This document shows positions 11,337 to 34,919 of a DNA stretch of 35,042 nt, piece by piece; positions within the stretch are counted from its first letter, which is position 1, and each line of letters starts with the position of its first letter. Where the stretch lies: the sequence record SRR22947725_1729; one strand, written 5' to 3'. The notes under the pieces are model-generated. The model saw nothing but the letters and a program-made list of their open reading frames with translations, was not told the DNA's origin and did not search any database. The position numbers and the translations under genes were made by a program.

Positions 11337-14300
11337 ATGAGCCAGCTAAATCATGACCTGGCATTCAAGCACCGCTGCATGAACAAAAAGCGTGTATCAT
11401 GCCTGCTGTTTTTATTGTCATGGCTCACTCTCAGCGCGCTGGATATTTCTGAATTCTCGACCAGCGAAGATGTTGTTATTGAATGTGTGGTGAGCGAACC
11501 CTTGGTCATCGACCCGGTAGCCATGGCATTTGATGAGCATCAACGCATGTGGGTGGCGGAGAACCGGGCTTATCCATCCGTGACTCCTGATGTGAGACAA
11601 GGACAAATCGCACTCCTTGAGGACACGAATCTGGATGGCTTCTATGAAAAACGAACAACCTTTGCCACAGGGCTGTCCTATCCTAACGGTGTCATTCCAT
11701 GGGAAGACGGTGTCATCGTCACTGATGCGCCGAATGTCCTGTTCATGAAAGATACCGATGGCGACGGGAAAAGTGATGTTCGTCAGACTTTGCTCACTGG
11801 GTTTGACACCAGTCGGTCCACTCAACTCAGGGTCAATGATCCCACCCTTGGACCAGGGGGATGGATCTATCTGGCGGGAGGTTTGAGCGGTGGTCGGGTC
11901 AAGGCTCCCTGGCAATCGAATGATTCGATCATTGACATGCGCCGCCATGACATACGTTTTCACCCATACACATGGCAACTGAAGGCGACGACGGGGAAAT
12001 CCCAATATGGATTGGACATTGACCGCAAGGGCAATCGATTCATCTGCATGAACCGCGTTCAGGTGCAACACGTGATGGCAGAGGAATCCGATTGGGGGAA
12101 TCACCCTTTCTTTCCATTCAGTCAAACGGTGGAGAACCTTCCGAAAGAACGAGTGGATGATTTACTGAGAGGGTACAACGCGGGCGCACGCATTTTCCCA
12201 CTTACCAAACATGAGACGACCGCTGACTCTCATGCTGGCACATTCACCGCCGCTTGTGCCGTCACCATTTAAGAGATCAATGGATTACCGGAAAAATATT
12301 CCGGTCATGTCTTCTCATGCGATCCAACAGGCAATTTGATTCATTTCGATTACCTCGAACCAAAAGGGCCCGGTTTTGAGGTAAAAAGACAAGAATCCGA
12401 GACTGAATTCGTCGCATCAAGGAATCCCTGGTTCCGTCCAGTGTTCCTGACCACGGGTCCCGAGGGAGCTCTGTATGTGTGTGACATGCGTCGCCAAACA
12501 ATTGAACATCCTGATTACCTGCCTGAGGAAATCCGCAAACGCACTGATTTTGAAAGTGGGAATGACATGGGCCGGATTTACAGAGTGCGCGCAAAGTCGA
12601 CTTCAGCTCTGAAAACGAAGGCACCCCATGAACGAGCAAATAGCCAGTCAGAAGATATACGTGCATTTCGTGAAGCCACGTACACAGGCAATGAATGGAG
12701 AATAGATTCCTCTTTCAGAAGAATCGCAGAAAAATCAGGCAACAAAGAAACACGCCTTGAAGCATTTTCAGCATTGATGAAAGCGTGGAAAACAGTCCAT
12801 CCGGATTATCAGCATTGGTTATTGTCGCTACTCGATGAGGAACAGCAGACGCATCGCAGACTCCTGCTTGATGCCTTGGCAGAGGTAACACCTGCAGGCA
12901 GGACCGCAATCCTCAAAACCATTGGCCGACAAAGTGTAAAGACAGATGCGGCAGGTAACGTAATAGAAAAGTGGTATCGATCCACTTTTGCTTCCTCAAC
13001 CCCATCGGATGAAACACTGCCACCCATGTTAAGGTTTCGACTGGCTTTGGAAATGGATTCATGGAATCAGCCGCATCGCTCTGAAGTTCTGGCAATGATC
13101 TTGGCCAGGGATTCCAGATGGGAATGGACTCGGTCCGCAGTCATACAATCTTCAAAAGGTGATGCCTTGTCATTGTTGAAAGAACTTTTCTTGTCTCTCT
13201 TCAAAATTCCAGATCTGAACGAATCCGAATCTCAAAATACACCCGCATTGAACCATGCAGGTATGCTGATCTCCGTAGAGAAGCTTTCAGAAATAGCCAT
13301 TCTGGAGGGAGCGAATCCTTCTGATATTCTGAATACCGTTCTCAAAGGAAAAATACACAAGCATCGAGATATCGTGCCTGGCAACAGGGCTGATCTCCCT
13401 TTGGAGACCAGAAAACACTCGAATGAACAAGGCCGGAGGGAAGCAAACGCTTTCTTCTTGGCCGCGATGCTTCTTGGCATGCATGAATCAGGAAAACTTC
13501 CACCGCCCGACACCACCAAAGTCTGGCTTGAGTGGGGAGACCCAGCATCTTTGGAAGCCTGGGAAAAGATGAAGAAAACCTTGTCCGATTACTCCACCGA
13601 CCATTTAACAGAAGAAAAAAAATCCGTACTGCATCGTTTTCGAATATTGTCTGGTCAGGAAGACTGGGTATGGAAACTGCACGAAGCCGTGAATCTGAAT
13701 GACGCCGGGTTACTTGATCTGGTGATAGAAGCTTCAAGATCTGCTCTGGCACATGAGATTTTGAGCGAAGTTTTTGCCCCAGCAATCTGGACCAGGCTCC
13801 CGCACGCCGCACGCAACCAATTCCTTCAAACAGCCTGTTCCGATCAACGGCATGCAAGACTCGTTTTCACCGCGATTGAGAATGGCTTACTGCCCGCTGG
13901 AATGCTGAACATCCATCTTCGAAATCAATGGAATCGCGTCTTGTCACAGGAACAAGGAGAACGACTTGAGTCATTGTTGGGCAAACAAGTTTCAATCGAT
14001 GCATTGGCTTCGTTTGAACGACTGAAACCTGCAGTAAAAATGCAAGGAATACCTGCCAGAGGAAAGAACCTCTTTCTCAACCTGTGCAGCTCCTGCCATC
14101 GACTTGATCAAACAGGACAGGCCCTGGGTCCGGATTTATATGGCATTCGCAATCAGGCAAAGGAAAGCATTCCGCTGCACATCGCAGATCCAAATCGAGA
14201 AATTACATCCGGATTTGAAGGAGTGGAATGGACGACATCCGGTGAGACGTTCATTGGCCTTCTGGCCTTTGACAATGGAAACCAAATTCGCATGCAATTA

Positions 14301-14441
14301 CCCTCTGGAATCAATCTCACCTTCCAACGCAATCAGGGTGCCTTACGCAATCTGGATCTTTCACTCATGCCCGAAGGTATCCTGAACGCCTTGACTCATC
14401 AGCAGGTGGCAGATTTATTGGCTTATCTGAGAGGCGAATAA
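11337..14441 (+). pseudogene. PVC-type heme-binding CxxCH protein (membrane-bound dehydrogenase-like propeller, helical region, cytochrome c), interrupted by one in-frame TAA at 12270-12272
   Basis: ORFs 11337..12272 and 12336..14441 are in the same frame, and the gap translates as family-like sequence (TI*EINGLPEKYSGHVFSCDPTGNL). Motifs EPLV.DPVAMAFD, LEDT..DG, WFRPV....GPEGALYV.DM, CSSCH, GPDL, SLMPEG. Signal peptide from ATG 11379. Could be a sequencing error rather than a true pseudogene. Confidence 0.8.
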
Positions 14442-14545
14442 AGCACGCGAAAGAAGGACTTCAAGCCGATCCATGGCTTCCAGCAAAAACAGCCTTTATT
14501 CACTTGAGGTTCTGACTTTCAAAGTTACAATTCCGAGTGCATCCA

Positions 14546-16579
14546 ATGAACAACCTGCAAAGACAAAAAAGTCTGTGCATGCTATTGCTTCAACTGAAAG
14601 TGATAGCGTTTATCTTTGTATTGTTGACACTCATGCTCGCATTACCAATGCGAGCAGCTGAACTGGCAGATGAAACGGCCTTCTTCGAAAACAATATCCG
14701 CCCCATCCTGGTAGATTCCTGTTACAAGTGCCATTCAATCGAAAAAAATAAGTCCAAAGGAGGCTTGTTCCTGGACAGCCGACAAAGCCTCATGAAAGGT
14801 GGCGATAACGGACCAGCCATCAAACCTGGACATGCAGCGGAGAGCCTGCTGATCAGCGCCATTAATTATGGGGATGAAGATCTTCAAATGCCACCAGACG
14901 AGCCACTGACTCCGGAACAAATGGGGCATTTTGAAACATGGATCAATGCTGGAGCGGTTTTTCCTGACAGACTCATTGCAAGTTCCAAAAACGCAGAATC
15001 CTGGTGGGATGAAATCGAGCCTGAATCACTCCTCCCGTTAAGTTCCAAACCTGAGGAAGTGATCGACCATTACACCCTTCAAAAACTAAGGATCCAGAGC
15101 CTGATCCCAGCACCTCCTGCTACGGAAACTGCCTGGCTGCGTCGCATCACGTTGGATCTGGCGGGACGACCACCCACACCTTCTGAGCGAAATGATTACT
15201 TGTTCAATCCGTCTAAAACCCGCAAGGAGGAATTTGTAAATTACCTCGCCCAAACCAGCTGTTTCCTTGAACAACAGATTGAAGAATTCAATTGGCTGCT
15301 GATGGATGGCAAAAAAGGCAAACTGAAACCTTACCTCCAGACTGCGCTGGGTGAATCCAGAGCCTGGGATCAGATATTTAAAGAAATTATTCTGGCAGAT
15401 TATTCCAATGTGTCTTCGGAAGGCGCCGCTGAGTTTATCAAGGATCGTGTGCGGGATATCGATCGTTTGACCAATGACGTCAGTGTGCGTTTTTTCGGTG
15501 TCAACATCAGTTGCGCCCAGTGTCATGATCATCCCAATGTCACCGATTGGACACAAGCACGCTATTATGGAATGAAATCCTTTTTTGGCCGCACCTTCGA
15601 AAACGGAGGCTTTGTGGCAGAAAAAGAATATGGCCAAGTCAGTTATAAAAATACTCAAGGGGATACACTCAAGGCGTCACTTCAATTTTTAGAAGGAGAT
15701 GCACTGACGGAAACACTGAGCAACTGGACTGATGAGAAAAGAAAAAGCGAAAAAGCACTTCTGGAATCGTTGAAAAAAGAAAAGAAACCTGTTCCCCCGC
15801 CCGCTTACAGCCGTCGAAGCCGACTTGTCGAGGCCGGCTTGGCTGGGGATCAGGCAGGTTATTTTGCCAGAGCCATTGTCAACCGGTTATGGCACCGCCT
15901 CATGGGCATCGGACTCGTAGAACCATTGGATCAAATGCATGGTGACAATGATCCATCCCACCCGGAATTACTGCAGTGGCTGTCCCACTGGTTCATCGAA
16001 CATGATTACGACCTGAACGGATTGATTCGAGGCATTGTTCTCAGCCAGGCCTACCAGAGGTCGAGCGCCTGGGAGAGCGCGGAGCGTCCTGCGAAACATC
16101 TTTACGCTGTGGCAAACATCCGCGTACTCACCCCCCGTCAATATGCAACCACACTTCTCATGGGTGTCACTTCCCCGTCGGACTGGCAGAACAACCTTGA
16201 CCCTTCTTCCCCCCGACACAAGGAGAGCTTAGAAAAAGCCTTCAAGGATCTTTCCAAGGTAAGATCGTGGTTCGAACGCCCCACAGAGACTTTTCATTTC
16301 AGTGTCGAGGAGGCCCTGCAGTTGAGCAACGGAGAAGAAGTTCAATCCATTTTATTTGATTCCTCTGCAGTTGGATTATTGAACACACTTACCGAAGAAC
16401 GAGATCTTGACCACTGTATCCAGCAAGCTTACCTGCATATTTATCATCGCCCCCCATCGGAGGAAGAAGCTCAATTACTGAAATCCTTTCTGAATGTCGG
16501 AAAGGAAACATTTCCAACACAACTCAAATCCATGGTATGGGCACTATTGACCAGCCCGGAAAGCCGCCTGAATCACTAA
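14546..16579 (+). CDS. Planctomycete cytochrome c (PSCyt1) + DUF1549 + DUF1553 (PSD1) protein
   Basis: FFE..IRPIL...CYKCH, MPP, WI..GA; LRR..LDL.GRPP; CAQCHDHP; VNRLW..LMG.GLVEP.D, PSHPELL..L; WALL.SPE. Signal peptide; start ATG 14546 or GTG 14537. Confidence 0.92.
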   Translation: MNNLQRQKSLCMLLLQLKVIAFIFVLLTLMLALPMRAAELADETAFFENNIRPILVDSCYKCHSIEKNKSKGGLFLDSRQSLMKGGDNGPAIKPGHAAESLLISAINYGDEDLQMPPDEPLTPEQMGHFETWINAGAVFPDRLIASSKNAESWWDEIEPESLLPLSSKPEEVIDHYTLQKLRIQSLIPAPPATETAWLRRITLDLAGRPPTPSERNDYLFNPSKTRKEEFVNYLAQTSCFLEQQIEEFNWLLMDGKKGKLKPYLQTALGESRAWDQIFKEIILADYSNVSSEGAAEFIKDRVRDIDRLTNDVSVRFFGVNISCAQCHDHPNVTDWTQARYYGMKSFFGRTFENGGFVAEKEYGQVSYKNTQGDTLKASLQFLEGDALTETLSNWTDEKRKSEKALLESLKKEKKPVPPPAYSRRSRLVEAGLAGDQAGYFARAIVNRLWHRLMGIGLVEPLDQMHGDNDPSHPELLQWLSHWFIEHDYDLNGLIRGIVLSQAYQRSSAWESAERPAKHLYAVANIRVLTPRQYATTLLMGVTSPSDWQNNLDPSSPRHKESLEKAFKDLSKVRSWFERPTETFHFSVEEALQLSNGEEVQSILFDSSAVGLLNTLTEERDLDHCIQQAYLHIYHRPPSEEEAQLLKSFLNVGKETFPTQLKSMVWALLTSPESRLNH

Positions 16580-16589
16580 TCAACGCATC

Positions 16590-17915
16590 ATGAAACCCGA
16601 TCAAACTCCCCCTGGACAATGCTCACATTCCGAGCATCAACTCAGCCGCAGATTATTCATGAACAGTTTGGCGGTGAGCATGGCTGGTGCAAGTGGTCTG
16701 ATAGGAAATACTGGCTCCGCCCACCTTTTCGATCAGGAACCGATGACCAGAGAACTCAAGGCGAAGGGGCGCAGCGTCATCCTGGTTTGGTTGGCGGGTG
16801 GCTCCAGTCAATTTGAAACCTGGGACCCGAAACCCGGCAGCCCAAAAGGGGGACCGTTTTCGACGATACCTACCAGCATTCCGGGCCTCCACATCTCTGA
16901 ACTGATGCCCAAAATGGCGAAACGCATGCACCAGACATGCCTGATCCGTTCATTGAACACCAAGGACAGCGGACATGATTCAGCCTCTGCCTTGATCATG
17001 CGCGGACGCAAGGATGAGCCTTCCCTCAAGTATCCCGATATGGGTGCGATACTGGCAAAAGAGCTGGCTCGCACAGATAGCAAGGTACCAGATTACGTTT
17101 CATTTTATTCTCAAACTGAGGGAAGGAATTTTTCGAAGCTGACCCCAAGTTTTCTTGGAGCTCGTTATGCGCCGATGGAACTTTCGGATCACATGACTCC
17201 GCCCAATCTGAAACGATTGCAGGAACTTTCTGAAATCGCCCATCTTTCAAGAGCGGATCTGCAGCAGGTCCTGAGTCAACAATTCGCCAGCCAGCACAGT
17301 TCGGATATGGTGAAAAGTCATGCTTCTGCATTTGCACGCGCTCAGGGGCTCATGAGTAGTGAGTCTCTTTTCGATGTTGAGAAAGAACCCAGATCCATCC
17401 GTGAAAAGTATGGCCCTACCCAGTTTGGCAAACAAATGCTGATGGCCCGCAGGTTGGCTGAATCAGGGGTTCCCTTTATTCGGGTCGGACGGGCATGGTG
17501 GGACAGTCACGGACAGAATTTTGAAACGCACCAGGAAATGGTTCCAGAGCTCGATCATGTCTTGTCAACATTGCTGGATGATTTACGCCAGCGAGGCATG
17601 CTCGATCACACGCTCGTCGTCGTCATGGGAGAATTTGGACGCACCCCTGAAATCAATGCAAGCCTTGGGCGCGACCATTTTTCAAGGGCATGGAGTGCCT
17701 TGATGTCAGGCTGCGGTGTCAAAGACGGAGCCGTTTTTGGGGCAACCGACAAACACGGTAAGGAGGTCATTGAAGGTGAGGTAGGTGCGGGCGAACTGTT
17801 CGCGACGATGCTGAACGCAGTGGGAATTCAACATGATAAGAACTACTACGTTGGCCCACGGCCGATCCCACTGGTTAATTATGGCATTGAACCCATTCGC
17901 CAGATCTTGACCTGA
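16590..17915 (+). CDS. DUF1501 domain protein with a twin-arginine signal
   Basis: SRRLFM, WLAGG.SQFETWDPK, ARRL.E.GV.F, WDSH, GEFGRTP, GRDH. Confidence 0.93.
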   Translation: MKPDQTPPGQCSHSEHQLSRRLFMNSLAVSMAGASGLIGNTGSAHLFDQEPMTRELKAKGRSVILVWLAGGSSQFETWDPKPGSPKGGPFSTIPTSIPGLHISELMPKMAKRMHQTCLIRSLNTKDSGHDSASALIMRGRKDEPSLKYPDMGAILAKELARTDSKVPDYVSFYSQTEGRNFSKLTPSFLGARYAPMELSDHMTPPNLKRLQELSEIAHLSRADLQQVLSQQFASQHSSDMVKSHASAFARAQGLMSSESLFDVEKEPRSIREKYGPTQFGKQMLMARRLAESGVPFIRVGRAWWDSHGQNFETHQEMVPELDHVLSTLLDDLRQRGMLDHTLVVVMGEFGRTPEINASLGRDHFSRAWSALMSGCGVKDGAVFGATDKHGKEVIEGEVGAGELFATMLNAVGIQHDKNYYVGPRPIPLVNYGIEPIRQILT

Positions 17916-26933: not shown

Positions 26934-27653
26934 TTACTTCTTGGCCTTGGTTGCCGACCAGTTTCCTTTAGCCACTTCTTCGTTGAAATCATCGTAATAT
27001 TTCCACTCGCCGACCAACTTCTGGGCAGCTGAGAGTTTCGCAGCTATTTTGACTGTGCCTCCGCCAAAAGGAATTTCCATTTTCAGCCCGTTCTTAAGCA
27101 CTTTGACACGGTTGTAATTTGTTTCGCCATCGTCCGTGGAAGCCAGAGCAGAAAAACCCGAGCCTGATTTTTTAACGATCATAGCATGCTCCATGAGATC
27201 CTGGTCGGTTTCTGCCACAACATCCCATTTACCAGCAAAGACAGGTGGGAGAGAACGGACAGCTTTCCAATCATTGGACATCTGCTCAACCCCATCCTCA
27301 GAACGAACAAACCATTTCCCCGATAAACTGCCGTCCTTCTGCAAATCTGCTTTGGCGCCTATGACTCCCTTGTTGCCATCTCTTTCAAAATCAAAAGCGA
27401 TGGCTAATGTTTTACCATCCAGCTCAACGCGATCCATGTCCTGCTTGACCCCTTCTTCATTGACCATGCTTACGGCCCACTTATCGCCATTTTTCCGAAT
27501 GGTAAAAACTGAATCACGTGATTCAAATTCATCAATGGAAGCGGACGCATCCCATTTGCCTGCAAGATTGACTGTGGCTTTGTGGTGATCGGCATTAAGA
27601 GTACTGCAAAAAACACAGAACACTCCGGCTAGTGAGTAGATTAATTTTTTCAT
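26934..27653 (-). CDS. Secreted protein with two tandem beta-rich domains
   Basis: Signal peptide MKKLI...LNA; two ~100 aa repeats starting [LF]AGKWD and ending L.G.W...W.A.[RK]. Confidence 0.8.
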   Translation of the reverse strand: MKKLIYSLAGVFCVFCSTLNADHHKATVNLAGKWDASASIDEFESRDSVFTIRKNGDKWAVSMVNEEGVKQDMDRVELDGKTLAIAFDFERDGNKGVIGAKADLQKDGSLSGKWFVRSEDGVEQMSNDWKAVRSLPPVFAGKWDVVAETDQDLMEHAMIVKKSGSGFSALASTDDGETNYNRVKVLKNGLKMEIPFGGGTVKIAAKLSAAQKLVGEWKYYDDFNEEVAKGNWSATKAKK

Positions 27654-27777: not shown

Positions 27778-28635
27778 ATGTCGAGCATGGCACAATTGGA
27801 GAACAAGTATTCAGGACATGTTGAATTTTCACCTCATTTTAGGAAGAGGCATTCCATTCAATATGTAGTGTTCGATTTCGATGGCACTTTGTCTCTTGTC
27901 CGTGAAGGTTGGCCTGAGGTCATGCTCCCGATGTTCGTTGAGATGCTACCAGACAAAACGGGAGAGTCAGAAGAATCCGTCAAAAACATGCTGCTCGACG
28001 ACATCATGAAATTGAACGGAAAACAAACTATCTACCAGATGATCCAACTTGCAGAGCGAATCAAAGAGCGAGGAGGATCTCCCAAAGAACCTCTTTGGTA
28101 CAAGCACGAATACCTAAGGCGTCTGGATCTCCGCATTCAAAACCGCAAAGAAGCAATCTTGTCAGGTCAAATAAAAGCCGATGAACATGTTGTCCACGGC
28201 GCTCGCCACATGCTTGATCTCCTAACCAGCAAGGGCCTCCCCGTTTATTTGGCCAGTGGAACTGACGAACCCTTTGTTAAGGAAGAAGCAAAGATCCTCG
28301 GGCTGGACCATTACTTTAAGGGGCACATTTATGGCGCCCTTGACGATTACAAATCTTTCTCAAAGAAAATGGTCATTGATCGAATTTTACGCGAAAACAA
28401 CATTCCGGGTGAACGTCTTTTATCTTTTGGTGATGGATATGTGGAAATTGAAAACACAAAGGAAGTGGGTGGACTCGCAGTCGCAGTGGCCAGCGATGAA
28501 GCCAACAATGGAAGCGGCAATATCGATGAATGGAAACGAAAGCGTTTGATGGGTGTGGGTGCCGATGTGTTGATTCCTGATTATCGCGATATAGAGGTAT
28601 TGATGCCACAACTGACCGATCAACCGGCTTTTTGA
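27778..28635 (+). CDS. HAD superfamily phosphatase
   Basis: Motif I FDFDGT, motif II LASGT, motif III Lys, motif IV FGDG..E. Start is ATG 27778 or 27787. Confidence 0.92.
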   Translation: MSSMAQLENKYSGHVEFSPHFRKRHSIQYVVFDFDGTLSLVREGWPEVMLPMFVEMLPDKTGESEESVKNMLLDDIMKLNGKQTIYQMIQLAERIKERGGSPKEPLWYKHEYLRRLDLRIQNRKEAILSGQIKADEHVVHGARHMLDLLTSKGLPVYLASGTDEPFVKEEAKILGLDHYFKGHIYGALDDYKSFSKKMVIDRILRENNIPGERLLSFGDGYVEIENTKEVGGLAVAVASDEANNGSGNIDEWKRKRLMGVGADVLIPDYRDIEVLMPQLTDQPAF

Positions 28636-28706
28636 CGTGTTACGGGAAAAGCTGGCAGCAAGCAATCCGGAAAGAGCAGGTTGACAAGAAGAGTTTACCT
28701 TAGCAT

Positions 28707-29822
28707 ATGAATAAAATTTTTGAACCTCCCTTTGATCGTTCGCGATTGAAGGTTTTCCCTATCGAGGAAAGAAAAAGCCTCACCAGCGTGGAAGACATTC
28801 TGGTGGATCCAGAGTCGAAATCAGGTGAGGTGAATCCTGATCTGGCTTCGCAAATAGACAACTGCGCTCAATCCATTCTAAAAGCACGGAATCGTGGAGC
28901 TTCGGTCATGCTCATCTATGGAGCTCATTTATTACGCAATGGTGCCGCACTGATCCTTGATGAAATGATGGAGCAAGATTGGCTGACACATCTTGCAACC
29001 AACGGAGCAGGCACCATTCACGATTTTGAATATGCTTTTCTGGGCCGATCCACTGAATCCGTGAGGGAAAACGTCGAAACCGGCACGTTTGGGGCATGGG
29101 ATGAAACGGGACGCTCCATCATGTTGGCTCTGGCAGCGGGCGGACTGGAGAACAAAGGCTACGGGTGCTCACTTGGTCAATTCATTACTCAAGATGGATG
29201 CGAACTTCCTTCTCCCGAAACGCTGAGGGAGGCTATCATCAAAGATCCTGCTTCCAGACTAGCAGCAGCACAAGCAGACTGCCTTCGATTGATGAGTCAG
29301 TTTCAACTCAAACCCGGGTTTCACGCGGTCAAAAACAGAAATAAAAAAGCATCCATTCTGGCGAATGCCTATGCACATGGAGTCCCTGTTTCTGTGCATC
29401 CTGGCATTGGATATGATATTATTACCAACCACCCAATGTTCAAAGGAAGCATCGTAGGGCGTGCAGCAGAATCAGATTTCGAACTCTTCTGCAAAGCTGT
29501 AGAGGACCTGGATCAAGGTTCGGTTTTATCGATTGGATCTGCGATCATGGGACCGCAGGTTTTTGAAAAGAGTTTGAGCTGTGTACACAACGTGAGGCGT
29601 CAAGAAGACCGCCAAAATGTCACAGGCCATTCCATTCATGTCGTGGACCTGCAGGATGGTGGCAAATGGGATTGGACAAAGGGGGAACCTCCCAAGAACA
29701 GTCCAGCCTATTACTTGAGATTCTGTAAGAGTTACTCCCGCATGGGCGGAATCATGCATTATTTGCAATGCGATAACGCCACATTTATACATCAACTTTA
29801 CAAACGCTTGAAACAAGCATGA
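28707..29822 (+). CDS. Deoxyhypusine synthase-like (putative NAD-binding) protein of unknown function
   Basis: L.YGAHL.RNG....L..M....W..HLATNGA..IHDFE, SILA.AY...VPV.VH, IGSA.MGP; these parallel DHS-fold segments. Recognised by eye only. Confidence 0.6.
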   Translation: MNKIFEPPFDRSRLKVFPIEERKSLTSVEDILVDPESKSGEVNPDLASQIDNCAQSILKARNRGASVMLIYGAHLLRNGAALILDEMMEQDWLTHLATNGAGTIHDFEYAFLGRSTESVRENVETGTFGAWDETGRSIMLALAAGGLENKGYGCSLGQFITQDGCELPSPETLREAIIKDPASRLAAAQADCLRLMSQFQLKPGFHAVKNRNKKASILANAYAHGVPVSVHPGIGYDIITNHPMFKGSIVGRAAESDFELFCKAVEDLDQGSVLSIGSAIMGPQVFEKSLSCVHNVRRQEDRQNVTGHSIHVVDLQDGGKWDWTKGEPPKNSPAYYLRFCKSYSRMGGIMHYLQCDNATFIHQLYKRLKQA

Positions 29823-30829
29823 ATCCAAATCGTATTAGCGAAATCCTTAATTGCTACGATCAATTAAAAATCGCGATCGTTGGGGATTTTTGTCTTGATC
29901 GATATTTTGAAATCGATCCATCACGTTCTGAAAAATCCATTGAAACAGGTCTGGAAGTTTATAATGTCACCAACGTACGCACCCAGGCAGGTGCCGCAGG
30001 AACGGTACTGAACAATCTGGTTGCACTTGGCATACCGGAAATTCACACGATCGGGTTTTGTGGTGAAGATGCCGAGGGTTGGTTATTGCGCAAGGCACTC
30101 CACAAGCTGAAAGGAGTCAACTCGGAATTTTTCTTCAGCTCCAGTCTGAGGCATACATTCACCTATTCAAAACCCCTCGTTTGTGAACTCAACAAGCCCC
30201 CTGTCGAGCTCAACCGTCTGGATCAAAAAAACTGGACTGCCACACCAGAAGAGATTTCCGATCAAATATGCGAGGGCATTGAAAAACTGATTCACAAGGT
30301 CGATGCCTTCATCGTCATGGATCAGGTCGATATTGAAGAAACGGGAGTCATCACATCACAAATCCTTGAACGCTTGGGGCAGATCCAAGAACAAAACCCT
30401 GAAAAATTAATCATTGCTGACAGCCGACGAGGCCTTCAAAGCTATCCCAATCTAACTTATAAGATGAACGCCAATGAACTGGCTGCCTGGAAGGGGTGTT
30501 CAAAGATGTCTATCGACCAAGTGAAAAATGAATCATTTCAAATTGCACGGAAATCAGGACAGCCAGTATTTGTTTCAATGGCCGATCAGGGAATCACTGG
30601 GGTAATTCCCAAGGGTGATCAAGCCCATGCAGCATCTCTTCCCTTGCGGGGGCCCATTGATATTGTAGGAGCCGGTGATTCAGTCACAGCAAATCTCTGC
30701 GCCAGCCTGGCAGCTGGAGCATCGCTTGACGAGGCGCTGCAACTTTCCATGCGTGCAGCCTCATGTGTTATCCACCAACTGGGAACCACAGGAACTGCCA
30801 CAAGGAGGGATCTGCTGCAATTCGCTTGA
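29819..30829 (+). CDS. PfkB family sugar(-phosphate) kinase, RfaE/HldA domain-I-like
   Basis: IAIVGDFCLDRY, GAAGTV.NNL.ALG, ADSR, N..E, DIVGAGDS; ATGA overlap with the upstream gene; no HIGH-type adenylyltransferase domain. Confidence 0.9.
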   Translation: MNPNRISEILNCYDQLKIAIVGDFCLDRYFEIDPSRSEKSIETGLEVYNVTNVRTQAGAAGTVLNNLVALGIPEIHTIGFCGEDAEGWLLRKALHKLKGVNSEFFFSSSLRHTFTYSKPLVCELNKPPVELNRLDQKNWTATPEEISDQICEGIEKLIHKVDAFIVMDQVDIEETGVITSQILERLGQIQEQNPEKLIIADSRRGLQSYPNLTYKMNANELAAWKGCSKMSIDQVKNESFQIARKSGQPVFVSMADQGITGVIPKGDQAHAASLPLRGPIDIVGAGDSVTANLCASLAAGASLDEALQLSMRAASCVIHQLGTTGTATRRDLLQFA

Positions 30830-30891: not shown

Positions 30892-31446
30892 TTAGCTTTC
30901 TTCTCTTTCCTGTGCTTCCTCTTCACTTAGAAAGTGGGTTTCCAGAAAAGAACTCAAATCGGCGGATTGCTGGAACAATTTATCTCTTAATTCGAGGACC
31001 GAATCGGGTCCATCCAAATCCCAGGGCTGGGAAAGAACCTCTTCCGTTCTCAGGAAGAGTGGGACATGAACATCAAGGTTACCCAGTTTGAGAAGAGTAT
31101 TTGTCAGGGCGCTCACATGGACTTGAGCCTCCTGGACCGTCTTTTTGCATTTCGAAAGGCTCCAATTCCCTGTTTTCAGGTGCTTGAGGACACCACATTC
31201 AAAGGATGCACACATGTTGGGTCTTTTGTCGTAAACTTTGCAATGATGGCTTTCATCAAGGCAATGACAGGGTTGAATCAAGAAGTTTTGATTGTCATGC
31301 TGTTCGAGCTCGACACCACAATTTAGGACGCGATCCAACTCCTGCTTATCTTCGATCCGGACATCAATGAATAACACACCAGAACAGCAGAACCCACAAT
31401 CAGTACATAGCTGTTTGGCCGCTTCAGCGTTGGTCGTTTCCTTCAT
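30892..31446 (-). CDS. YkgJ family (CxxCxxCC) cysteine-cluster protein
   Basis: CTDCGFCC...PC..L.....C.VY..RP..C..F.C. Confidence 0.9.
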   Translation of the reverse strand: MKETTNAEAAKQLCTDCGFCCSGVLFIDVRIEDKQELDRVLNCGVELEQHDNQNFLIQPCHCLDESHHCKVYDKRPNMCASFECGVLKHLKTGNWSLSKCKKTVQEAQVHVSALTNTLLKLGNLDVHVPLFLRTEEVLSQPWDLDGPDSVLELRDKLFQQSADLSSFLETHFLSEEEAQEREES

Positions 31447-33128: not shown

Positions 33129-34919
33129 TCAATGATATTCCTGGATAGGTTTTACTTGGTATCCATTTTTCTTGAGCGCTGCGATCGCCGAAGCGGCGGC
33201 CTTGGCACTGCTGAGTGTCGTCATGATGGGCACCCGACTGTAGACCGCAGTAGTACGAATCTTCACTTCATCGGCACGCGGAGCCTGCCCTGAAGGTGTA
33301 TTGATTACCAATTGAATTTCACCATTCTTGAGTAGATCCAGCGAGTTGGGTCGACCTTCGGCTAATTTGCGAACCTCGCGCACCTCCATACCTGCCTCCT
33401 GAATCACTCTGGCGGTCCCTTCGGTGCAGATCAGTTCAAATCCAAGATCAGAAAACTGTTTTGCCAGGTCTGCAATCTGCGACTTGTCTGATTTGTTAAC
33501 ACTGATGAACACTTTCCCCTCAAGCGGCAGAGGGGCGTTGGCTGCCATTTGAGATTTGGCATAGGCCGTTCCCAAATCAGCATCCAGTCCCATGACTTCC
33601 CCGGTGGATTTCATTTCGGGAGAAAGCAGGATATCTTGCCCCTGAAAGCGGTTGAATGGGAATACGGATTCCTTGATCGCCCAATAATCCGGCCAAATTT
33701 CCTCAGTAAAGCTCAAATCGATGAGCTTGGCACCCGCCATCACTCTGGCCGCCATCTTGGCTAAGGGAACCCCAATGGTTTTACTTGTAAAAGGCACAGT
33801 GCGGGAAGCCCGAGGATTGACCTCCAGCACATAAACAACGCCATCCTTGACCGCATACTGAACATTCATCAGTCCAATCACTCGCAATTCCCTGGCCATG
33901 GCGTGTGTGTAGGAACGAATCGTTTCGATGGTTTCTTTGCTGAGTGTGTGGGGAGGCAGCACCATCGCGGCATCGCCGCTGTGAACGCCGGCAAACTCAA
34001 TGTGCTCCAACATACCACCAATGACGATGGTTCCCTCCTCCGGATTATCGAAATGCCCCACGTCGCATATGCAATCCACGTCCACTTCAGTGGCATCTTC
34101 TAAAAATTTATCTACCAAAACAGGCCGTTCCGGCGAAGCTTCAACGGCATAGCGCATGTATTCCCGCAATTCAGAATCAGAATAGACAATCTGCATCGCC
34201 CGCCCACCAAGCACGAAGCTCGGGCGAACCAACACAGGATACCCTACTTTCTTGGAAGCAGCTAAGGCTTCCTCTTCGTTCACTGCCAGCCCATTTTCTG
34301 GTTGCGGTATATCCAACTTTGTGAGCATGGCCGCAAATAATTTACGATCTTCGGCTATTTCAATGCTACGCGGGGAAGTCCCGATGATATTAACCCCGTT
34401 CTCTTGAAGACCAATTGCAAGGTTCAAGGGCGTTTGCCCTCCAAATTGGACAATGGCTCCCCAGCATTTTTCGCGATGATAAATGTTGAGCACATCCTCA
34501 AGAGTCAGAGGTTCAAAAAAAAGTTTATCGCTCGTGTCGTAATCAGTAGAAACCGTCTCGGGATTGGAGTTAACCATAATGGTTTCAATCCCTGTCTCTT
34601 TCAGGGCAAATGAGGCATGCACGCAGCAGTAATCAAACTCAATTCCCTGACCGATTCGGTTGGGACCTCCACCAAGGATCATGACTTTCCGAGTCTCTGA
34701 AGCCCGAATCTCGTCATCACCACGATCGTAGGAAGAGTAATAATAAGGTGTGTAAGCCTCAAATTCGGCAGCACATGTATCTACCAGTCGGTAGCTTGGT
34801 GATAAATCGTTTTGATGGCGAAATTCGCGGATTTCCTGCTCAGATTTACCAGCAAGGTTTGCAATTTGCTTGTCTGAAAACCCGAAGGATTTGGCTTTGG
34901 TGATTGTTTCTAAGTTCAT
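33129..34919 (-). CDS. carB: Carbamoyl-phosphate synthase large subunit, C-terminal half as a separate gene
   Basis: AK..GFSDKQIA, VDTCAAEF, GGGPNRIGQGIEFDYCCVH, RPSFVLGGRAM, EVNPRASRT, EMKSTGEVMG and MGS domain. Only 596 aa with one ATP-grasp domain; stops in all three frames upstream. Confidence 0.96.
   Translation of the reverse strand: MNLETITKAKSFGFSDKQIANLAGKSEQEIREFRHQNDLSPSYRLVDTCAAEFEAYTPYYYSSYDRGDDEIRASETRKVMILGGGPNRIGQGIEFDYCCVHASFALKETGIETIMVNSNPETVSTDYDTSDKLFFEPLTLEDVLNIYHREKCWGAIVQFGGQTPLNLAIGLQENGVNIIGTSPRSIEIAEDRKLFAAMLTKLDIPQPENGLAVNEEEALAASKKVGYPVLVRPSFVLGGRAMQIVYSDSELREYMRYAVEASPERPVLVDKFLEDATEVDVDCICDVGHFDNPEEGTIVIGGMLEHIEFAGVHSGDAAMVLPPHTLSKETIETIRSYTHAMARELRVIGLMNVQYAVKDGVVYVLEVNPRASRTVPFTSKTIGVPLAKMAARVMAGAKLIDLSFTEEIWPDYWAIKESVFPFNRFQGQDILLSPEMKSTGEVMGLDADLGTAYAKSQMAANAPLPLEGKVFISVNKSDKSQIADLAKQFSDLGFELICTEGTARVIQEAGMEVREVRKLAEGRPNSLDLLKNGEIQLVINTPSGQAPRADEVKIRTTAVYSRVPIMTTLSSAKAAASAIAALKKNGYQVKPIQEYH

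Follow-up and report, generated by a model that had tools for sequence, protein, structure and literature searches.

Which pathway is served by three adjoining genes at positions 27,778 to 30,829 of sequence record SRR22947725_1729, and what does the middle one contribute to it? The stretch of DNA analyzed here (the window) is 35,042 nucleotides long, and the three genes encode a HAD-superfamily phosphatase (HAD'), a protein of the GSU2086 family (MID) and a PfkB-type kinase (KIN'). A preliminary description, made from the letters of the window, had read them as a non-canonical, heptose-like sugar-phosphate route in which a deoxyhypusine synthase (DHS) fold was repurposed as an epimerase or isomerase dependent on nicotinamide adenine dinucleotide (NAD). 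Our analysis confirms the observation and partly supports the interpretation. The trio is likely a heptose-phosphate branch; judged by gene content, it appears to run parallel to the canonical hldA-gmhB pathway and not to be a stand-alone replacement for it, and MID is a candidate for its hydride-shuttling epimerase or isomerase.

The three genes and their products

HAD' (27778..28635, 285 aa), MID (28707..29822, 371 aa) and KIN' (29819..30829, 336 aa) all lie on the + strand, between two genes on the − strand (26934..27653 and 30892..31446). A spacer of 71 nt separates HAD' from MID, and the ATG of KIN' at 29819 overlaps the MID stop codon (TGA, 29820-29822). This ATGA start/stop overlap (29819..29822, + strand), read from the sequence, is an arrangement of translational coupling. 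Since each of the three has hundreds of conserved relatives, they can be taken as real genes and not chance open reading frames (ORFs). A protein identical to MID is on record in a Verrucomicrobia metagenome-assembled genome, and the closest locus (L001, 99% identical) belongs to a Verrucomicrobia single-cell genome that is 75% complete (G001, the same as G002). Genome-wide comparisons were made on this near-identical genome and on other genomes.

HAD' is placed in the HAD superfamily by PF00702 (1.2e-13; 52.3 bits against a gathering threshold of 26.4) and carries the DxDGT motif I as D-F-D-G-T near residue 33; its HAD-IB match (TIGR01488, 30.9 bits) stays below the cut-off of 45. The NCBIfam search returned no match to GmhB (TIGR00213) at E<=0.01, and a GmhB-type Zn site is impossible because the translation contains no cysteine. 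HAD' is thus a capped phosphatase that is not of the GmhB type, and we propose that in this branch it would remove the 7-phosphate from a sugar phosphate. KIN' is a PfkB kinase (PF00294, 4.5e-19; 69.3 bits against a gathering threshold of 25.8) whose top NCBIfam match, domain I of HldE (TIGR02198), reaches 120.8 bits, far below the cut-off of 345. Its nearest solved structure is Burkholderia HldA (7e-9), and it shares 23% identity with the canonical HldA of the near-identical genome. The VGD..LD.Y motif is present at its N-terminus, the C-terminal GAGD motif of PfkB kinases (G-A-G-D) is invariant across 22 KIN' relatives, and a Pfam search found no cytidylyltransferase-like (adenylyltransferase) domain, so that KIN' reads as a divergent HldA paralogue. 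On all of these points (three co-oriented genes bounded by opposite-strand genes, coupling by an ATGA overlap, an HldE domain-I signature with no nucleotidyltransferase, and a HAD protein that is not a GmhB-type Zn enzyme) the preliminary description was accurate. A prediction of a MID and KIN' complex scored 0.00, but alignments were unused and controls were not run, so that it carries no weight either way.

Gene order and domain fusions

Gene order was compared across the 80 best of 593 confirmed MID relatives on one-genome-per-species contigs, all of them of the long form, which in the window MID is marked by a helical insert at about residues 163-211. The order HAD'-MID-KIN' is kept in 46 of the 80 loci, bearing out the expectation that the trio is conserved together; seven loci have MID-KIN' only, one has HAD'-MID only, 20 have MID alone, and six are cut by a contig end. 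A HAD' homologue (41-99% identity) stands immediately 5' of MID in the 46 trio loci, in the HAD'-MID locus and in one locus at a contig end. KIN' lies 3' of MID in 54/80 loci, and 20 of those 54 junctions overlap or abut. Because the flanking genes vary freely, we regard the trio as a self-contained module. In nine of the 80 loci a GmhA-like SIS gene stands directly 5' of HAD', and all five genomes with a stand-alone MID that we considered (5/5) encode a KIN'-like gene (32-52% identity) elsewhere. GFO/IDH/MocA oxidoreductases (14/80 loci) and xylose-isomerase-like TIM barrels were set aside as partners; they were judged likely chance neighbors, coming from very large families of the Planctomycetes-Verrucomicrobia-Chlamydiae (PVC) group.

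Domain fusions, surveyed in representative proteins with Pfam and NCBIfam, point in the direction of heptose. MID is fused to PfkB and HAD domains in one protein (P0126, 1,021 aa), to a DUF89 damage-control phosphatase and an HldE-domain-II-like transferase in two (P0145, P0262), and to such a transferase alone in three (P0149, P0151, P0206). Other proteins join it to a GmhA-like SIS domain (P0226, P0242), to HAD domains (P0173, P0182, and P0231, where the domain is GmhB-like) or to PfkB (P0259). For every fusion partner the best family is the heptose enzyme, yet each scores below its curated cut-off (kinase 124-158 vs 345; transferase 97-169 vs 181.5; SIS 74-110 vs 209). MID thus appears to add a fifth activity to those of the isomerase, the kinase, the phosphatase and the nucleotidyltransferase, since it is fused to all four. 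The idea that MID is an NAD-using adenylyltransferase replacing HldC was rejected, as MID is fused to HldC-type domains in five proteins. Two further proteins (P0121, P0156; 679-693 aa) carry a second MID copy, i.e. tandem GSU2086 domains in a single chain. DHS works as an oligomer with its cofactor at subunit interfaces; because the cofactor sits between subunits there, these fused MID dimers may be informative.

The neighborhood in Geobacter that the preliminary description had mentioned is on record: for Geobacter sulfurreducens, PMC5585712 places GSU2086 between hldE (GSU2085) and gmhA (GSU2087). There it appears among the genes of a sugar operon as a hypothetical protein, with a transposon phenotype on electrodes (-3.2) like those of hldE (-3.1) and gmhA (-3.7); polar effects are possible. 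This was the only paper found that names GSU2086. Our literature search returned no paper assigning a function to the GSU2086 family, and nothing joining deoxyhypusine synthase or similar proteins with heptose or HldE.

Canonical heptose genes in the same genomes

All ten MID-bearing genomes tested (10/10) encode a pair of HldA-like kinases, of which one is near-canonical (314-351 bits) and the other belongs to the divergent KIN' type (114-142 bits), while five MID-less genomes of the same phylum have the canonical type only (5/5; KIN'-type paralogue, 0/5). GmhB-like genes abut the canonical hldA in three genomes (G003, G004, G010), and an HldC-type transferase above the cut-off is present as a single copy in four of five. 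There is exactly one GmhA-like gene in each of G002, G003 and G004 (117-122 bits); in G002 it lies ~1.2 kb beyond the window start and is 58% identical to the SIS protein heading the module in Paludisphaera. The module-type SIS is the sole GmhA-like gene in three genomes that retain the canonical hldA. The GmhA-type isomerase thus appears common to both routes, with the split at the kinase step, and because of this we would assign the MID reaction to the stage of sugar phosphates, KIN' and HAD' being specialized for its product.

Distribution of HldD and two types of MID locus

HldD, the epimerase of the canonical pathway, was scored with TIGR02197 in evenly drawn samples of three phyla (323 genomes, 106 of them, or 33%, with MID). 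It was found in 2/8 MID-bearing against 83/113 MID-less Verrucomicrobiota (above cut-off), in 6/64 against 17/37 Planctomycetota and in 1/34 against 17/67 Acidobacteriota (both at E<=1e-75), or overall in 9/106 MID-bearing and 117/217 MID-less genomes. Fisher tests of this avoidance gave p = 0.009 in the Verrucomicrobiota and 5e-5 in the Planctomycetota, values that are overstated because related genomes are not independent. One of the six planctomycete overlaps is a broken, sub-cut-off HldD copy.

The overlaps are not randomly spread, and most of them fall to trio-type members. Five of the nine genomes with both proteins carry the long form of MID (G032, G068, G005, G136, G224), and HldD was present in 7/13 long-form genomes (G003, G004 and G006 included). 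The single acidobacterial overlap (G315) is the lone short-form locus of 18 that has a trio, HAD' (52%)-MID-KIN' (33% identity), at L106. Short-form MID proteins are only 24-34% identical to that of the window. We fetched 18 of their loci and covered all 18 by tblastn and 13 by a Pfam scan of neighbors (58 ORFs). The lipopolysaccharide (LPS) gene lpxK directly adjoins MID in three loci (L090, L098, L099) and lies ~0.9 kb off in L095, with one small unscanned ORF between; three more loci (L091, L092, L094) have the same ORF layout as L090, by layout comparison only and outside the Pfam scan. An HldE-type bifunctional gene adjoins MID in L095 and L098, and a HAD and transferase fusion lies nearby in L099, as does a lipid A acyltransferase in L093. 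A GmhA-type SIS gene is immediately 5' of MID in L102 and L105, and a family-9 heptosyltransferase adjoins it in L107. No heptose or LPS families occur among the scanned neighbors in L096, L097, L100, L101, L103 and L104. To judge from these neighborhoods, the short-form members of LPS operons look like stand-ins for HldD. The trio-type members may form an additional branch, one indifferent to the presence of HldD, and because they often coexist with HldD they may make a further heptose isomer.

Family, fold and conserved residues of MID

MID belongs to NCBIfam NF052581 ('GSU2086 family'), at 327 bits against a cut-off of 250, with residues 8-366 aligned to positions 1-300 of the 301-position model. 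The family is already catalogued, with no assigned function, and is very widespread, with >6,177 proteins in a 90%-clustered collection and, for MID as query, 1,741 representative clusters at E<=1e-3 in a 50%-clustered library; it is therefore not peculiar to the window. Source names among the 120 best relatives listed are all generic ('hypothetical protein') except that of P0010, which is apparently misannotated. Long-form MID is ~63-65% identical across Verrucomicrobiota, Planctomycetota and Acidobacteriota. Its Pfam matches are sub-threshold only (ArgZ-like_C_2nd, 23.1 bits; DS, PF01916, 17.3 bits; cut-off 27 for both), the PF01916 match being confined to residues 47-111, and the match to TIGR00300, over residues 48-115, amounts to 17.5 bits where the cut-off is 410.8. 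Searches of Pfam and NCBIfam gave no SDR or TIGR02197 (HldD) match in MID.

An AlphaFold model of MID built on 34 relatives reached a predicted local distance difference test (pLDDT) score of 94.9 and a predicted template-modeling (pTM) score of 0.93. Foldseek matched it at probability 1.00, with template-modeling (TM) scores of just 0.4-0.46, to the LOR/SDH-like protein 3c2q, ArgZ, AgrE and many DHS entries. In VIA-align the best match was ArgZ (6juy_B; Z 19.2, 210 residues aligned, root-mean-square deviation (rmsd) 3.1), followed by AgrE (6lrg; Z 18.8), 3c2q (Z 18.1) and DHS (8put_A, Z 17.5, 266 residues aligned, rmsd 4.2; 1dhs, Z 16.3). The model therefore predicts a dinucleotide-binding fold like that of DHS and ornithine cyclodeaminase, and the DHS fold first proposed for the middle protein is upheld. 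A PDB search with the single MID sequence gave no matches, and only a profile search gave any; there the ArgZ/AgrE/3c2q group alone was significant (6e-7 to 7e-5), over residues ~41-112, which comprise the first two nucleotide-binding loops and an HD-x-E motif that MID has in common with ArgZ, AgrE and 3c2q.

The likeness to DHS does not extend to its chemistry on polyamines. True PF01916 homologues (131-235 bits) are encoded at other loci in four of five MID-bearing genomes; therefore MID is not the cell's DHS. Local profile alignment (hhalign) of MID with the DHS homologues of the same genomes covered only 50 columns (probability 72%). A forced global alignment (probability 42%, indicative only) lays successive DHS dinucleotide loops on conserved MID segments, up to the invariant D314, and at the same low confidence sets the lysine of the DHS S-W-G-K motif, the catalytic residue, on K325. 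Among 34 relatives this column holds K in six (Q in eight, N in four), so the catalytic lysine of DHS is no feature of the family. K288, an earlier candidate for the equivalent lysine from motif spacing, was dropped, as the global alignment puts G277-S278 on the GGG loop of DHS. The dinucleotide site that had been anticipated for MID appears retained in so far as the first two loops align, and the catalytic lysine is not conserved. MID has 19 residues that are invariant in the 34 relatives, mostly polar or glycine, at loops that bind the dinucleotide in its kin. A further segment (333-347) is specific to MID, with R338 invariant and K341 and R345 each present in 33/34 relatives; it may form a phosphate-binding site in place of the polyamine tunnel.

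Co-occurrence with larC

The TIGR00300 relatives of MID are named 'nickel-pincer nucleotide-dependent' in NCBIfam, and Desguin 2025, cited in PMC13524815, reportedly describes an ornithine cyclodeaminase that uses a nickel-pincer adenine dinucleotide. For these two reasons we scored larC (PF01969). It was present in all of the first 12 MID-bearing genomes (12/12) and then in every MID-bearing genome of the three samples: 8/8 Verrucomicrobiota (MID-less, 68/113), 64/64 Planctomycetota (25/37) and 34/34 Acidobacteriota (41/67; the MID-bearing count is 33/33 without G279, which is flagged unpublished). Pooled with G003, G004 and G006, larC occurs in 109/109 MID-bearing and 134/217 MID-less genomes, and MID in 0/83 larC-less genomes of the three phyla. 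The pooled one-sided Fisher value for the three samples is 6e-18, in a test that treats related genomes as independent and is not tree-aware.

Two controls in the Planctomycetota frame this result. For LarA itself, larC was found in 46/47 LarA-bearing genomes, the exception being a 42-residue LarA fragment; for HldD, larC was found in 16/23 genomes, and HldD in 7/12 larC-less ones. LarA is present in 32/64 MID-bearing Planctomycetota, and the other half have larC without LarA. No larC was found in the E. coli control genome, and our literature search found no work joining the nickel-pincer cofactor with heptose. As no genome without larC was found to have the family, the hydride carrier of MID may be a nickel-pincer nucleotide or nickel-pincer adenine dinucleotide (NPN/NPAD) and not NAD. 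That the whole GSU2086 family is nickel-pincer dependent we put forward tentatively, as somewhat short of probable.

In G002, larB (AIR-carboxylase-like) and larC form an operon of two overlapping genes, with no adjoining LarA (L089:4425-6493, contig C142, outside the window). The sole LarA-family match in that genome is a partial one (77 bits) on a different contig. Close by (L089:7584-9045) an amino-acid permease gene of this single-cell genome is split into two overlapping ORFs, probably by a frameshift or assembly error.

A proposed branch and its alternatives

In the branch that we propose, a GmhA-type isomerase would supply heptose 7-phosphate to both routes. MID would then alter the configuration of the heptose phosphate with the help of a dinucleotide, held tightly, that carries hydride. 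Oxidation and re-reduction would form a redox-neutral cycle, as they do in DHS and ornithine cyclodeaminase, the structural relatives of MID. The likeliest site would be C6, giving the L-glycero form ahead of activation. KIN' and HAD' would shift the phosphate from C7 to C1 on the altered isomer, and the single HldC-type adenylyltransferase would activate the product. We think it about evenly balanced whether this full model holds, with MID as a heptose-phosphate epimerase or isomerase, possibly nickel-pincer dependent, that has its own kinase and phosphatase. A more specific form of it is possible, though we lean slightly against it: the GSU2086 family, along with its cyclodeaminase kin, would follow LarA and the AKR-type NphT as the third fold to use a nickel-pincer cofactor and would be a nickel-dependent heptose epimerase, and the trio would be a further branch leading to a second isomer before nucleotide activation.

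Several points weigh against this proposal. The C6 site and the order of steps are guesses. Each genome tested has one HldC-type transferase at most, which makes the separation of two routes hard to see, and MID cannot be simply redundant with HldD here because the two coexist in nine sampled genomes and in 7/13 long-form ones. As to nickel, larB or larC lies within 6 kb of MID in only one of the 80 long-form loci (L042) and in 0/18 short-form loci, and in G002 the larB-larC operon is ~38 kb from MID. larC is common in the sampled phyla (60-88%; 76/121, 89/101 and 75/101), whose genomes are related, and the statistics are not tree-aware. A LarA-family gene, present in 12/13 selected MID-bearing genomes including G001, could alone account for larC, and AgrE, a close structural relative, was crystallized with plain NAD+ (PDB title of 6lrg).

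The same points feed the strongest alternative, in which the branch and its redox-neutral chemistry (on heptose phosphate or ADP-heptose) are as proposed but MID works with ordinary bound NAD(P)+, the larC link coming from ancestry and lifestyle. Besides AgrE, DHS too was solved with NAD according to PDB titles, and the dinucleotide loops are conserved in MID; with larC so common, lar genes almost never adjoining MID and LarA homologues in nearly all of the selected genomes, the link could arise indirectly. Such a reading leaves it unexplained that MID is missing from all 83 larC-less genomes though it occurs in a third of all those sampled, whereas HldD, which serves as a same-pathway control, is freely found in genomes that lack larC; we consider this alternative rather doubtful. 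It is improbable, to our mind, that the substrate is a different sugar phosphate (hexose, pentose or octose) and the likeness to heptose enzymes a matter of descent only. All partner domains do score far below the heptose cut-offs (kinase 121-158, with KIN' included, SIS and transferase as above), and no LPS gene is near the trio in the window; but the best match of each partner is still the heptose enzyme, short-form relatives sit among lpxK, hldE, gmhA and heptosyltransferase genes, the module-type SIS is the sole GmhA-like gene in three genomes keeping canonical hldA, and the anticorrelation with HldD is hard to explain otherwise.

Two remaining explanations deny MID a catalytic role on sugars. 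It might serve the heptose enzymes as a subunit for regulation, scaffolding or metabolite sensing, and in favor of this one can cite that no activity is on record for the family; its identity of ~63-65% across phyla and the 19 invariant, mostly polar or glycine residues at the dinucleotide loops are the pattern of an enzyme, and we find this very improbable. A polyamine enzyme of the deoxyhypusine or homospermidine synthase type, near sugar genes by accident, deserves almost no credence. The fold is DHS-like, and the ESM Atlas has automatically assigned names of the kind 'deoxyhypusine synthase family protein', but the PF01916 score is sub-threshold, a true PF01916 gene lies elsewhere in 4/5 genomes, the lysine column is K in just 6/34 relatives, sequence likeness to DHS spans only ~50 residues, and the segment with R338, K341 and R345 would fit an anionic substrate. 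On this count the initial rejection of a polyamine or hypusine role was sound. The suggestion of a non-canonical heptose-like route fared less evenly: the heptose link holds, through the fusions, but the route does not stand alone, as the canonical hldA-gmhB pair is retained and HldD occurs in about half of the trio-type genomes. Likewise, of the suggestion that the trio is a new system, what stands is that the literature found assigns MID no function, and what falls is novelty of the family.

Other features of the window

The remaining genes of the 35-kb window are housekeeping or PVC-typical and unrelated to the trio (uvrC, obg, floA/nfeD, PSCyt/DUF1501, gspF, trx, an outer-membrane efflux protein and carB), and a domain scan found no LPS genes among them. 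A promoter scan of the trio region gave four sites against 4.2 expected from shuffled sequence, i.e. no excess. Terminator-like sites numbered eight against 3.6 expected from shuffles; seven are within the trio genes and one is past the downstream gene on the other strand, so that none marks the end of the operon. Immediately downstream of the trio (30892-31446, − strand) is a gene for a CxxCxxCC (PF03692) putative zinc- or iron-chelating protein. We place it outside the module because its position, together with that of the outer-membrane efflux gene, is kept in only six close relatives (L001-L003, L005-L007).

Elsewhere, two neighboring + strand ORFs correspond to the N-terminal part (11337-12272; model positions 6-273) and the C-terminal part (12336-14441; 297-384) of DUF7133, the second running on into a cytochrome c domain; either the gene has been split or frameshifted, or two genes are its natural form. 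Next on the + strand (14537-17915) come genes for a PSCyt1/PSCyt2/PSD1 protein and for a DUF1501 protein, in that order; such pairs are typical of the genomes of planctomycetes and Verrucomicrobia. A 596-aa ORF on the − strand (33129-34919) holds only the second ATP-grasp half and the MGS-like domain of the carbamoyl-phosphate synthase large subunit, which suggests a split carB or a first half of the gene beyond the ORF's own start.

Significance and comparison with known systems

The usual view of ADP-heptose synthesis is that of a closed pathway with five enzymes; it also serves as a target for antibiotics and gives rise to an innate-immune signal. Here gene order and fusions link to this pathway a family that is present in 106 of the 323 sampled genomes and largely excludes HldD. 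New in this work are the distinction between trio-type and LPS-operon-type members, the finding of the trio beside a canonical hldA-gmhB pair with a common isomerase, the quantified avoidance of HldD in three phyla and the strict co-occurrence with larC. If MID is a true missing epimerase, many 'HldD-less' Gram-negative bacteria would be explained, and the dedicated kinase and phosphatase of the trio point to a diversification of heptose at the sugar-phosphate level that has not been described before.

Should MID use a nickel-pincer cofactor, nickel would be tied to envelope sugar synthesis, and a null result of plain expression in E. coli would be explained, provided that the laboratory strains of that species lack lar genes, of which larC was the one looked for here. 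So would part of the numerous genomes that are larBCE-positive and LarA-negative, as noted in PMC13524815. Were it a nickel-dependent epimerase, envelope heptose and LPS synthesis in much of the Planctomycetota, Acidobacteriota and Verrucomicrobiota, and beyond, would rely on nickel and larBCE.

Among known systems, the LarA superfamily consists of nickel-pincer-dependent 2-hydroxyacid racemases and epimerases and is proposed here as an analogy only. The likeness would lie in an epimerization in which a bound cofactor takes up hydride, and gene content in the Planctomycetota shows the same one-way dependence on larC (LarA 46/47, MID 64/64); the fold is unrelated, and cofactor-binding residues cannot be set side by side. 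DHS (PF01916; 1dhs, 8put) shares the fold (Z 16-17.5) and the first two nucleotide-binding loops, but MID falls below the Pfam threshold, does not conserve the catalytic lysine and occurs in genomes that have a separate true DHS. Closest in structure are ArgZ, AgrE and the TIGR00300 proteins (6juy, 6lrg, 3c2q), which are the top structural matches (Z 18-19) and the only significant PDB sequence matches and share the HD-x-E motif. Their catalysis is redox-neutral with a bound dinucleotide, in one branch reportedly nickel-pincer adenine dinucleotide (NCBIfam name; PMC13524815). MID differs from them in that only ~210-220 residues superpose, in a context of sugar phosphate and not of arginine or ornithine, and in its own basic segment (333-347).

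With the ADP-heptose pathway the trio shares a kinase that is an HldA paralogue, a GmhA-like module SIS and the presence of a phosphatase, and MID is elsewhere fused to the domains of all four early steps. It departs from that pathway in that none of its proteins reaches the corresponding heptose-enzyme cut-off, HAD' is of another HAD class than GmhB, a canonical hldA-gmhB pair exists elsewhere in related genomes, and MID lacks a textbook counterpart, being of another fold than the SDR epimerase HldD and unrelated to it; a resemblance to HldD could only be one of function. The nearest system is the NF052581 family and GSU2086 itself: MID exceeds the cut-off across the full model and shows the same association with heptose genes, while the window MID is distinguished by its long form, with an insert of ~50 residues, and by a kinase and a phosphatase of its own.

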